From UHGV virus genome UHGV-1519562: a stretch of 64,000 nt of DNA; one strand, written 5' to 3'. This DNA comes from a virus. The position numbers were made by a program, and so were the translations under genes. The first letter of the stretch is position 1, and every line of letters begins with the position of its first letter. The notes under the pieces were generated by a model. The model had not been told where the DNA came from. It saw only the letters and a list, made by a program, of their open reading frames with translations, and ran no database searches. Below, piece after piece: positions 61,664 to 64,000 of the stretch.

Positions 61664-61695
61664 GGGAAGCTAATTTAATAGCTTCCCCTATTTTC
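61661..61695. terminator. bidirectional terminator between converging plus- and minus-strand genes
   Basis: stem TAGGGGAAGCTA / TAGCTTCCCCTA with T-runs on both strands. Confidence 0.7.
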
Positions 61696-62007
61696 TTTTA
61701 TACGTTTAAATAATATATTCGCTTTTTGTACTACTTCTTGTCCATACGTTGCTAATAAATCAGCTAATAATTCTTCTTGCTCAAGGGATAAATTTATATC
61801 ATAGCTAAACATTGCAGCATGGATTATCTCATGGCACAAAACTTTTTGCAAATAACTATTATTTAAATTTTTATCTATATAAATGGTTTTAGTTTCATCA
61901 TCACAAACTCCAATAGTATAAGTTCCATCACTTCTCATTAAATTATAATCAGAAGAAGAAACAAATTCTATTGTCCATGTTTCGCCATTTACATTTACTG
62001 TATACAT
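61675..62007 (-). CDS. putative zinc metallopeptidase (HExxH)
   Basis: 110 aa; motif VLCHEIIHA. Confidence 0.45.
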   Translation of the reverse strand: MYTVNVNGETWTIEFVSSSDYNLMRSDGTYTIGVCDDETKTIYIDKNLNNSYLQKVLCHEIIHAAMFSYDINLSLEQEELLADLLATYGQEVVQKANILFKRIKENRGSY

Positions 62008-62561
62008 TATTGTATTTTAGCGGAAATAGAATTAATGCGCTGTTGTATCATTTGTTTCTCTTCAGGAGATGCACCTTCTATCATTTCCACTATATCACTG
62101 GCTAATTCCTGCATATAGTGTTCTAACTCTTTTAGCTGAGTGGGCTTATCTTTGTGCATTTCTTTTGATTCCATATAAGTTTTGCGGCTTATAGGACTAC
62201 GACCTTCACGCTTATCCCGCATTTGTTCTAAAGGTTTATAAGGCATCATATACATATCGTCATAATATGTATAATCATCTTCATCTTTTATATGTTTTTT
62301 CATTTTAGGATCAATCGTATAATACATTCTAGGAGTAGGATAATACATTCTGCCATGATGTTTATCCATATCTCTATTATTAGTATTATAATCAGACTCT
62401 TCCATAGCTTTTCTAATAGTATGATAATACATTGCTTCTTCACAATCTTTTATCATATCTACTGCTTCACCTAATTCGTGAGCATCAACAGTATCAAGAT
62501 GGGCCAATTCCCCTTCAACACAAGCCATTAAACAATTTCTCATATTTTTTAATCTTTCCAT
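62007..62561 (-). CDS. hypothetical protein
   Basis: 184 aa ORF, Met/Tyr/Asp-rich. Confidence 0.5.
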   Translation of the reverse strand: MERLKNMRNCLMACVEGELAHLDTVDAHELGEAVDMIKDCEEAMYYHTIRKAMEESDYNTNNRDMDKHHGRMYYPTPRMYYTIDPKMKKHIKDEDDYTYYDDMYMMPYKPLEQMRDKREGRSPISRKTYMESKEMHKDKPTQLKELEHYMQELASDIVEMIEGASPEEKQMIQQRINSISAKIQ

Positions 62562-62575
62562 ACTGTACCTCCAAA

Positions 62576-62998
62576 TTAAGCAACACGTTCAACAATTAGA
62601 TTAGCATTTTGAACGCTAACTGTTTGAGTGCTAATATTTTTTACACTAATCTGAGAGCAACAACCTTTAGGAACATCTAAAAAGATACTACTAAACACGT
62701 TATTGTACTGATCGACTGCGGCTGGAGTAGTTGTCATGGTTGTTGTAGCAACAGGTTCGCCGTTAATAGCAATAGCTAAAAAAATAGCGCCAGCAGTTCC
62801 ACCAGTAGGAACAGCAATATTAGCGCCAAAAGTTACTCTAAAACGAGCGCGGCACTGGGTGCTAGCCAGGCCGCGCAAAGTAACTAATCCACTACCATTA
62901 CGATGAACCATTGAACAACTTCCACCAACTACTGTATCAGTCATAAGAACATTTTGATTGGCTGCAACTGATTGAGCAGCATTGGCTGTAATTTCCAT
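62576..62998 (-). CDS. hypothetical protein (Ala/Thr/Val-rich)
   Basis: 140 aa ORF with GC-richer composition. Confidence 0.5.
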   Translation of the reverse strand: MEITANAAQSVAANQNVLMTDTVVGGSCSMVHRNGSGLVTLRGLASTQCRARFRVTFGANIAVPTGGTAGAIFLAIAINGEPVATTTMTTTPAAVDQYNNVFSSIFLDVPKGCCSQISVKNISTQTVSVQNANLIVERVA

Positions 62999-63022
62999 AA
63001 ATTAGTTATCCTCCAAATTTAA

Positions 63023-63859
63023 TTAATAAATGCTAGAGCAGCAGCTATTGCAAGAATTTGCGGAACCGCAGTTGCAATAAGGGTTAGCCACTACATAAGC
63101 GGGGATAGGAGCTTTCTGACCAAGTTCGCTAACCAGATAAGCATTTTGAGCTTGCTGAGAAGCCGCAAATTTCAAAGTCTGATTTTCGGACTGTAAGGAA
63201 GCAATCTTATCCCGAGTTAAGAAATCTAAGATTTCACGAGTGCTATCTTGAACAGCTCTACGAGTATCGCAAGACTGAGTAGCTAGGTTATAATTCAAGT
63301 CACTAAAACCGCGCTCAATAGCACGTCCGGTCTCACAGCAACAAGACTGTAACTGTGTGCCCAAAGCAGTTAAGCCAGCAGTAACACCATTAAAACCATT
63401 ATTCATACCAAGAGTAATAGTATTAGTATTCTGATTCATATCAGAAGTGATACCATTAGCCAACTGAGCAGTCTGATAACCAAGAGTACAAATAGCATTA
63501 TCAGTACCAGCAAAACCTTGCTGAGTATTCAAAGCTTGATTGCCGAAACCAGTTAAAAGACTATTATTAAGAGCATAAAAACCATCACATAGGCCACTCT
63601 GAATACTACGGACAGAATTCTCTAAACCATTCATATCAAAGCCATATGCAATTTCTTCACGGGTAGTTGTACCACCCATTGGTGACACGCTACGACCATA
63701 GCCGTTTTCACCCCAGCCCCATCCATTCATCATGAATAAGAACAGAAGGATGACCCACCAGCCATTGCCTCCACCAAAACCATCATCATTACAACGATTA
63801 CCGCCGGTAGCTGCAGCGATATCAGCTAAAGAATAGCCAGAATTTGCAGTATTAAACAT
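63023..63859 (-). CDS. Gly/Asn/Cys-rich hypothetical protein with Trp-rich hydrophobic segment
   Basis: 278 aa; GWWVILLFLFMMNGWGWG; C-terminal CNCGSANSCNSCC. Confidence 0.5.
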   Translation of the reverse strand: MFNTANSGYSLADIAAATGGNRCNDDGFGGGNGWWVILLFLFMMNGWGWGENGYGRSVSPMGGTTTREEIAYGFDMNGLENSVRSIQSGLCDGFYALNNSLLTGFGNQALNTQQGFAGTDNAICTLGYQTAQLANGITSDMNQNTNTITLGMNNGFNGVTAGLTALGTQLQSCCCETGRAIERGFSDLNYNLATQSCDTRRAVQDSTREILDFLTRDKIASLQSENQTLKFAASQQAQNAYLVSELGQKAPIPAYVVANPYCNCGSANSCNSCCSSIY

Positions 63860-63886
63860 TTTTTTTATTCTCCTTTTGTTTTATAA

Positions 63887-64000
63887 AATTATTTAATGCC
63901 TAACATTTGTTTAAAAGCATTAAATTCTTTGTCGAAATCTATGCCTTGACCTTTGGCATAATTTCTAACAATTTGTTCAATATCCGCAGTCTTATTATCT
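63887..64000 (-). CDS. partial CDS, C-terminal end of a minus-strand gene starting beyond the window
   Basis: reverse-complement frame open to window edge. Confidence 0.3.

Follow-up and report, generated by a model that had tools for sequence, protein, structure and literature searches.

A portable six-gene cassette with a predicted membrane-spanning core protein and exchangeable beta-rich partners in an SPbeta-like gut phage

We analysed a stretch of 64,000 nucleotides of the virus genome UHGV-1519562 (the window), near whose end the coding strand flips into a block of minus-strand genes. The four complete genes of this block are the last four of a six-gene colinear cassette, F1-F2-F3-F4-F5-peptidase, and this cassette, centred on the 278-amino acid (aa) protein F3 and carried by thousands of gut phages, behaves as a self-contained portable module, with heterogeneous outside neighbours and genomic positions that vary from phage to phage. 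An earlier note, made from the sequence of the window alone, had proposed a separately acquired or separately regulated module at this place; the module survives as a portable colinear cassette, whereas orientation and composition, which had been read as signs of acquisition, do not.

Results

Conserved gene order in heterogeneous surroundings

Our survey covered 94 loci with F3, in which open reading frames (ORFs) were called and iterative profiles were built from seed proteins; 80 of these loci came from a scan of one genome per species. The core gene F3, of the 278-aa type, is present in all of them (94/94), accompanied by F1 (~150 aa, with a Gln/Pro/Tyr-rich N-terminus and a conserved small domain) in 77/94 and by F2 (~77 aa, Met/Gln/Asn/Pro-rich) in 53/94. 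Three families of small beta-rich proteins alternate in slot 4, namely F4a of the 140-aa type (55/94 loci), F4b, which has ~135 aa and a Cys-rich N-terminus (33/94), and F4c, the Bacteroides and crAss type (2/94). F5, of the 184-aa type, was found in 66/94 loci and F7, of the HExxH type, in 34/94. Nearly all loci keep the order F1-F2-F3-F4-F5, followed by F6, F7 or F8, the one clear departure being an F7 ORF upstream of F1. In tblastn searches of deposited phages, homologues of the 278-aa and 140-aa proteins adjoin in many gut phages.

The 80 scanned loci are nearly all from gut or rumen metagenome-assembled genomes (MAGs) of Clostridia, Lachnospiraceae, Oscillospiraceae and Bacilli/Mollicutes, with one in an Enterocloster hominis isolate. 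Carriers include phages labelled sipho-, myo- and podovirus as well as crAss-like phages; those in culture infect Clostridium perfringens and Butyrivibrio, and a minority of loci are Bacteroides or crAss-like. The cassette lies between a PGRP lysin and an integrase in Dulem virus 33, after the lysin in Butyrivibrio phage Ceridwen, after holin and peptidase in Bajarodcaudo virus 5, between antirepressor and Gam/Erf genes in C. perfringens phage XP41-N3, after recombination genes in a Bacteroides uniformis phage, and after holin and lysis genes in the crAss-like cr53_1. Downstream neighbours include HNH endonucleases, scaffold (3 loci), major head proteins (3 loci, a separate count), Sak4 and endolysins. 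Upstream, Sigma70_r4_2 occurs in at least 7/113 neighbours, Sigma70_r4 in 3 and GerE in 2 (counted within two genes upstream of the cassette, loci L014-L093), along with amidases and SH3 domains; the sigma-type proteins hint at dedicated regulation in some phages.

F3 combines a predicted membrane helix with conserved cysteines

F3 (63023-63859, minus strand) consists, in order, of a short acidic N-terminal tail, a Trp-flanked hydrophobic helix, a Gly-rich linker, a long helical region, a Pro-rich segment and a Cys-rich tail. It matches phrog_16490 in two stretches (E 3.4e-38) and has more than 7500 homologues in protein databases at 90% identity clustering. Searched with a profile, 1.84 billion representative proteins yielded at least 2750 family clusters at 50% identity (E up to 1e-3) and 1389 at 1e-10. 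Family members are all ~130-340 aa long without fused domains; none contains a Pfam domain, and F3 itself has no match in Pfam, NCBIfam or PADLOC.

Residues 34-49 (WWVILLFLFMMNGWGW; 63713-63760, minus strand) make up a predicted membrane-spanning segment, with the peak hydropathy window and Gly/Asn-rich flanks. W34 and W35 are invariant in alignment A1, so that a WW pair opens the hydrophobic core, and a further Trp closes it; among 84 members of the family that were examined, the core mostly measures 11-12 residues. The N-terminal tail has a median of 32 aa and is acidic (K+R 1.1, D+E 3.4), and the C-terminal flank of the hydrophobic helix has K+R 1.15 and D+E 1.85. The earlier note's mention of Trp-rich proteins does not hold for F3, in which Trp amounts to 1.4% of the protein, in four residues clustered around the hydrophobic segment, alongside Gly 12.2%, Asn 10.4% and Cys 4.3%.

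Two further conserved stretches are the block TTREEIAYGFDMNGLENxVRxIQxGLCDGFY and the motif ENQxLKFAASQQAQNxYL. Within the long helix lies a CCC triplet (residues 173-175; 63335-63343, minus strand) that is invariant in A1 and present in 86/102 family ORFs of the loci, several of the others being truncated; it is kept in the crAss-like and Bacteroides-phage homologues. The Cys-rich C-terminal tail (CNCGSANSCNSCC; 63038-63076, minus strand) follows a conserved Pro-rich PxPAYVVPNP segment and has equivalents across the family, such as the Cys/Gly-rich …GCGCGC and …CGCGNC. The AF2 model of F3 places helices at residues 34-44, 79-101 and 119-246, the last as a single helix, with a predicted local distance difference test (pLDDT) value of 50; low confidence is common when coiled coils are modelled as monomers. 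The Gly/Asn/Thr-rich stretches described earlier as low-complexity are indeed present in F3, but they are conserved and predicted to be helical, and hence not junk.

The best PDB profile match of F3 is coronavirus heptad repeat 1 (HR1; 5zuv, E 0.057, 15.8 bits) and is not significant; likewise, the PDB profile search showed no significant similarity to class I viral fusion HR1/HR2. The labels 'spike glycoprotein' and 'viral fibre' in public records probably arose because of an HR1-like coiled-coil composition. Among them is cr53_1 gp66 ('spike protein/glycoprotein'), which belongs to phrog_16490/phrog_20016, the families of which F3 and F4a are direct members. Members of phrog_16490 have the hydrophobic helix, the CCC, the SASQQAQ motif and the Cys/Gly tail in common with F3; the two families are without functional annotation, and the labels appear to be based on coiled-coil composition. 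F3 does not fit the description of a holin, which has fewer than ~150 aa, one to four membrane helices and a charged C-terminus: it has 278 aa and one hydrophobic helix, and a separate holin (phrog_13712) is found upstream in relatives.

Three side observations concern this protein. An out-of-frame ORF of 31 aa with a lipobox-like VVAC lies inside the 278-aa gene (63631-63726, minus strand) and is probably a chance occurrence; a lipobox ORF is embedded in only 7/83 F3 genes and hence not conserved, and an embedded o-spanin was rejected on this count. In a related 128-kb phage, an in-frame TAG occurs at the invariant Gln of the F3 SQQAQN motif (L011 8695-8697, also L012), where the database protein has Gln, an indication that late genes undergo TAG-to-Gln recoding in relatives; the four genes of the window do not need recoding. 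Elsewhere in the window, a radical-SAM protein (17836-19080, plus strand; phrog_1802, E 5e-29) overlaps the next gene (19058-19714, plus strand), which encodes 218 aa with 12% Cys and runs of CxxC/CxxxC repeats at both ends (CEKCNSGCQSCNSCESCDSCEKC…). The two may be a maturase-substrate pair, and the Cys motif resembles the tail of F3.

Alternative beta-rich proteins in slot 4

The slot-4 protein of the window, F4a (140 aa; 62576-62998, minus strand), matches phrog_20016 over residues 2-140 (E 2.7e-52) and also has more than 7500 homologues in protein databases. The four genes of the block are real, the 278-aa and 140-aa proteins having homologues in such numbers and a PHROG match each. F4a is Ala/Val/Thr-rich, with an invariant Cys113-Cys114 and a nearly invariant Cys49, and its identity within the close clade is 75-84%. 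Unusual conservation of F4a is confined to this clade: across 32 loci, F3 and F4a stand about equal, at 47% and 43%.

The predicted structure of F4a (pLDDT 83.5, predicted template modelling score 0.79), computed from an alignment in which the close clade was mixed with Ceridwen-type relatives, shows the topology of a ten-stranded jelly-roll beta-sandwich of the C1q/TNF type. BxpB, F-BclA, ExsF, EDA-A1 and BclA occupied the top ranks in Foldseek, and BFVD contains many stand-alone proteins of 130-143 aa with the F4a fold, from uncultured sipho-, myo- and podoviruses. The model thus gives good support to the assignment of F4a as a stand-alone C1q/TNF-like jelly roll with a fold like that of the BclA C-terminal domain or BxpB. 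Sequence searches with F4a found nothing in Pfam or NCBIfam (E up to 1) or in PADLOC, and no match among PDB sequences by single sequence or by profile. PDB sequence and profile searches with F1, F3, F4a, F4b, F5 and the DUF7841 group likewise returned nothing significant.

F4a resembles the BclA C-terminal domain, F-BclA and BxpB/ExsFA in its predicted fold. Unlike these, it is phage-encoded, has no detectable sequence similarity to them, no collagen-like repeats and no exosporium context, and its carriers include phages of non-sporulating hosts. The exosporium glycoprotein BclA joins an N-terminal targeting motif to a GXY stalk, whereas the 140-aa protein is a jelly roll alone; GXY repeats are missing from both this protein and F3, and a collagen-like BclA was rejected for that reason. 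Of the three slot-4 families, F4a and F4b were compared by hhalign and are not detectably related, with a probability of 0.4%.

F5 and the small peptidase slot

F5 (62007-62561, minus strand) is an acidic protein of 184 aa whose helical N- and C-terminal parts flank a Tyr/Met/Arg/Asp-rich, also Gly-containing middle. This middle is probably disordered and bears an RDxREGRSPxSRRxYME motif (alignment A7). F5 has no match in Pfam, PHROG, NCBIfam or PADLOC and no PDB relative; its homologues sit directly after the 140-aa homologue in other phages. In cassettes of the F4b type, the gene after F4b encodes a Tyr/Gly/Arg-rich disordered protein ending in DUF7841 (PF25223, E 1e-21 to 1e-35); a DUF7841 protein is also found just upstream of F3 in the crAss-like cr53_1 and further downstream in the Bacteroides-phage cassette. 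F5 itself is not a DUF7841 protein, an equation that we rejected on the basis of no Pfam match and an hhalign probability of 1.3%.

The last cassette gene encodes F7 (110 aa; 61675-62007, minus strand), the small HExxH protein with which the earlier note had correctly ended the block. Its motif, H59-E-I-I-H63, is located at 61819-61833, and HExxH is conserved in the family consensus. F7 matches phrog_1233 (E 8.5e-19), phrog_13742 'peptidase' (1.8e-7) and phrog_87 'metallo-protease' (3.4e-6), and scores below the Pfam gathering thresholds of DUF6782 (24.8/27), SprT-like (20.8/25.6) and Peptidase_M78 (20.2/22). From these matches we predict that F7 is a minimal zincin, that is, a small peptidase. 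It is like the minimal HExxH zincins (ImmA/IrrE Peptidase_M78, SprT-like, DUF6782; phrog_87, phrog_13742) in having HExxH within ~110 aa and weak profile matches to them, and unlike them in falling below thresholds and in having no XRE-family repressor adjacent. An XRE-type repressor is the usual partner of ImmA, and the neighbours of F7 are F5 on one side and a terminator on the other.

Elsewhere this slot is taken by other proteins. At nine loci (L032 3578-3931, L066 2195-2551, L070, L071, L073, L079, L080, L085 and L091), a 118-aa family with conserved Cys/His/Asp (NDCxxRAxS … GHxxxxxxGxxxDT[FW]) follows slot 5 in the place of the HExxH protein. It has no Pfam match and, judged by its motif, may be a non-orthologous replacement of the small peptidase. 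In the Bacteroides phage, a PolyVal metallopeptidase lies near the cassette end. Reading the sequences of F1, F2, F4, F5 and F7 revealed no signal peptide, which is consistent with assembly at the cytoplasmic face or following lysis.

The cassette ends the late arm of an SPbeta-like phage

Plus-strand genes extend up to 61663, and as the earlier note had observed, the coding strand flips after a bidirectional terminator. This is a perfect, G+C-rich intrinsic-terminator hairpin (61655-61696, both strands; stem of 16-18 bp with 6 G-C pairs, T-runs on both strands) placed between convergent stop codons, with the stops of both flanking ORFs inside or beside it. The minus-strand ORFs of F7, F5, F4a and F3 then follow, tightly packed, at the coordinates given in that note and with the motifs that it quoted, including GWWVILLFLFMMNGWGWG in F3 and the C-terminal end CNCGSANSCNSCCSSIY. 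Its placing of the block's start at 64000 needs revision, because the window cuts through a fifth ORF on the minus strand. This is the 3' end of F2 (63889-64000, minus strand; stop at 63889-63891), whose translation, …GQGIDFDKEFNAFKQMLGIK*, matches the C-terminus of an 80-aa protein at L005 8906-9148. The full F2 thus has ~80 aa, is Met/Gln/Asn/Pro-rich and precedes F3.

The plus arm is a replication arm and encodes topoisomerase II subunits, a RecJ-like nuclease, a helicase, a PolIII-alpha-type polymerase, NrdD, NrdG, dUTPase and a RuvC-like resolvase. The polymerase (51821-55657, plus strand; 1278 aa) is YorL-like, with 39% identity over 99% of its length to those of SPbeta, phi3T and related Bacillus phages; the window accordingly belongs to a lineage of large, SPbeta-like gut phages. 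Near-identical DNA was not found in the phage collection searched. Relatives of the 140-aa protein at 84% identity occur on contigs of ~51-131 kb with the same gene order as the window: PolIII, guanylate kinase, NrdD, NrdG, dUTPase, a RuvC-like gene and one small gene on the plus arm converge on a minus arm with genes for a small HExxH protein (107 or 119 aa), a protein of 164 aa, the 140-aa protein and one of 267 aa. Further upstream on the minus strand, these relatives encode first three small proteins (80, 129 and 129 aa) and after them six others (267, 743, 409, 212, 672 and 933 aa). Of the two 129-aa proteins, the proximal one is a holin (phrog_13712, E 6e-29), and two of the large proteins match tail-protein PHROGs. 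The same layout was seen in two more relatives of ~95 and ~128 kb.

The strand flip therefore marks where two long arms of a ~130-kb SPbeta-like gut phage converge, and the block, whose window-end ORF matches the 80-aa protein of relatives, is the 3' end of the late minus arm. At L004-L007 and L011-L013, the order reads tail proteins, holin, F1, F2, F3, F4, F5, HExxH, facing the RuvC, dUTPase, NrdG, NrdD and PolIII genes of the other arm. The cassette occupies an identical place in 8/8 clade loci read, which argues against recent insertion. Orientation thus gives no sign of acquisition, as the flip marks the junction of the arms and the minus arm continues upstream in relatives.

Nor does base composition, on which the earlier note had also relied. 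The window is AT-rich (~29% G+C). GC content is 0.41 in the 140-aa gene, 0.33 in the 184-aa gene and 0.27 in the HExxH gene, so the description of the neighbours of F3 as Ala/Thr-rich and less AT-rich applies to the 140-aa gene, the other two being ordinary. In the 140-aa and 278-aa genes (GC 0.41-0.42), the rise comes mainly from codon positions 1 and 2 (0.46-0.51), while GC at the third position (GC3) is slightly raised, at 0.22-0.30 against ~0.13-0.20 as typical, and is alike in other window genes. The raised GC mostly reflects amino-acid composition, that is, Ala/Gly/Thr-rich proteins; the increase of GC3 in F3, F4 and F5 is compatible with high expression.

Furthermore, the block is not less AT-rich than all of the rest of the window, given that plus-strand genes, such as 15658-16869 (GC 0.44), are equally GC-rich with the same codon-position pattern. 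This gene and its neighbour at 16896-17366 (plus strand, GC 0.36) encode Thr/Ala/Gly-rich proteins of 403 and 156 aa, so Ala/Thr-rich, GC-rich genes exist on the plus strand too. The two proteins have a common N-terminal YYLKDxEVRA motif and look fibre-like; the 403-aa protein has no PHROG match.

Discussion

The reading that we favour, tentatively and at less than an even chance, is that the cassette encodes a late-made, membrane-anchored stalk with an exchangeable beta-head that acts at the cell envelope. F3 would be made late and enter the cytoplasmic membrane of the infected cell as a bitopic protein through its Trp-flanked helix, and its long Asn/Gln/Thr/Ala-rich helix would oligomerise, probably as a trimer, into a coiled-coil stalk. 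The ring of CCC triplets and the Cys/Gly-rich tail could staple this stalk by disulfides or metal. An exchangeable binding head, the slot-4 protein, would cap the stalk or dock on it, much as peptides of fibre proteins dock on BxpB/ExsF trimers. F1, F2 and F5 would serve as assembly helpers or scaffolds, the small putative zincin would process F1, F2 or F5, and the complex might act at the envelope around lysis, in egress, masking or exclusion.

Several points weigh against this proposal. No cassette protein has an experimental or homology-based functional anchor, and the contact between F3 and F4 is based solely on gene adjacency. The F3 model is poor, which leaves the coiled coil and the trimer as inferences, and the charge bias around its helix is weak, so that topology is not fixed by charge. 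If the large domain of F3 faces outward, F4, having no signal peptide, could not reach it before lysis. The peptidase assignment falls under the Pfam thresholds. In addition, the cassette sometimes lies immediately upstream of scaffold or major-head genes, and a virion role fits that position equally well.

Such a role, which we judge unlikely though worth serious consideration, would make the cassette an accessory fibre or decoration of the virion, with F3 as a trimeric shaft, the slot-4 protein as a trimeric head (distal or basal) and the small proteins as fibre-assembly chaperones. Non-homologous slot-4 proteins exchange as receptor-binding heads do, their C1q/TNF-like member has a fold of fibre tips, and in this clade the cassette is in line with the tail genes; it stands immediately upstream of head scaffolding genes in 3 loci and of major-head genes in 3 (separate counts). 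The lack of signal peptides outside F3 would permit cytoplasmic, virion-like assembly, and the hardening of Cys-rich proteins after release has a precedent in spore appendages and the exosporium, whose Cys-rich proteins are made in the cytoplasm and hardened upon release. The fibre could be likened to BclA, the Sf6 needle/knob, PRD1 P5 and TNF-tipped coiled-coil fibres, but split into two polypeptides: in contrast to the Sf6 tail-needle knob, Chlamydia pGP3, Bdellovibrio fibres and PRD1 P5, the candidate stalk and head of the cassette are separate proteins, and unlike TNF-tipped fibres, the stalk has a conserved membrane-type hydrophobic helix and the CCC, and the head slot accepts non-homologous proteins. 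Against the fibre stands this strongly hydrophobic, Trp-flanked segment, which is present in every family member and would be unexpected in a soluble tailed-phage fibre. Carriage by sipho-, myo-, podoviruses and crAss-like phages at varying positions would also be odd for a part fitted to the virion, and the cassette proteins have no homology to any annotated structural PHROG. Clear homology to standard structural genes, which by the earlier note would have refuted its reading, was likewise not found.

With that helix, its helical domains and its conserved cysteines, the architecture of F3 recalls lambda Rz and could instead be that of a spanin- or fusogen-type lysis effector, an option that we regard as improbable. 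Once holin and endolysin had done their part, such an effector, anchored in the membrane, would remodel or breach the envelope by means of its coiled coils and of cysteines that link molecules. In common with i-spanins, F3 is predicted to have an N-terminal membrane anchor and a helical extramembrane domain, and it has conserved cysteines and a holin-adjacent gene: the cassette is directly preceded by a holin gene in this clade and at 18 loci, and it follows holin or lysis genes in cr53_1 and Bajarodcaudo virus 5. However, F3 is twice as long as an i-spanin and without sequence relationship to one, no o-spanin accompanies it (the next gene has no lipobox), and most carriers are assigned to monoderm hosts lacking an outer membrane (Clostridium perfringens, Butyrivibrio, Clostridia/Bacilli MAGs). 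Six genes with disordered proteins and a peptidase far exceed what a spanin needs, cr53_1 already has a separate LysB/FtsL-like lysis protein, and the weak compositional match to coronavirus HR1 that might suggest a fusogen is not significant. About as improbable is a recently acquired foreign island or moron, close to the reading of the earlier note, for example one for defence, exclusion, toxin or bacteriocin production. Portability between unrelated phages, location at the borders of modules, among them the place between lysis and integrase genes where morons classically lie, frequent HNH homing endonuclease neighbours and upstream sigma-70 region-4 proteins in some loci would all suit it, and in SPbeta the sublancin bacteriocin cassette lies downstream of the lysis genes. 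Yet every clade member read has the cassette at the same locus, and the F5 and F7 genes do not show the GC shift, most of which falls on the first two codon positions. Moreover, six cassette proteins have no PADLOC defence match at E up to 0.1, and no transporter, leader-peptidase or modification gene adjoins the block within the window. The Cys-rich tail had also brought to mind the precursor of a lanthipeptide or bacteriocin, which was rejected since no leader, transporter or modification gene is adjacent and F3 is a conserved protein of 278 aa. Finally, we consider it a long shot that the cassette makes a released, cross-linkable protective or adhesive matrix of the spore-coat, exosporium or polyhedra type. 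It would be put together in the cytoplasm from Gln-, Tyr- and Cys-rich proteins and a jelly-roll trimer, would set hard around virions or debris once lysis has occurred, and would be matured or dissolved by the peptidase. The BxpB/BclA-like jelly roll, the Cys-rich F3 and F4b, the Gln/Pro/Tyr-rich F1 N-terminus and the Tyr/Arg/Gly-rich F5 and DUF7841 proteins resemble such ingredients, and those listed have no signal peptide. The comparison is one of analogy alone, though; it leaves the F3 membrane helix unaccounted for, no lattice-forming homologue was detected, and Bacteroides and Butyrivibrio, among the hosts of carriers, do not sporulate.

Beyond the membrane-anchored stalk as such, it is conceivable, if doubtful, that the F3 cassette represents an unrecognised, widespread apparatus of Firmicutes, Bacteroidota and crAss-like phages, a cysteine-stapled membrane stalk with interchangeable beta-heads and an uncategorised late function. 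Candidates for this function are a new organelle for egress, receptor masking or exclusion, or a protective assembly that hardens. Databases already list the families as 'hypothetical protein'; their combination, namely a membrane CCC stalk protein with interchangeable beta-heads, disordered partners and a small peptidase in a fixed order in phages of Firmicutes and Bacteroidota, is undescribed as far as we found. In the literature searched, no paper mentions phrog_16490, phrog_20016 or DUF7841, and searches on Ceridwen, C. perfringens phages, BxpB/TNF-like proteins, DUF7841 and the PHROG numbers found no functional data.

A cassette so common and conserved, with its gene order kept across phages of very different hosts, culturable isolates among them, probably performs a general, unannotated step of gut-phage biology. 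The objects that it offers for testing are a predicted membrane protein whose CCC is invariant, a putative trimer of stand-alone C1q-like domains, the proteins that exchange in slots 4 and 5, and a small predicted peptidase. Misleading labels in public records, such as 'spike glycoprotein', 'outer capsid protein/viral fibre' or 'BclA protein', are corrected by the analysis; if the function turns out to be ordinary, better annotation would be the main value of this work.

Other features of the window

Two tRNA arrays (10234-12942 and 20167-21479, plus strand) contain 16 genes in total. There is no suppressor tRNA within the window, and one tRNA (12158-12230) was called with a four-base anticodon (tgaa). 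At L004 and L005 (14166-18916), NrdD is split by GIY-YIG and LAGLIDADG homing-endonuclease ORFs, while the NrdD gene of the window (56260-58389) is single and intact and encodes 709 aa.

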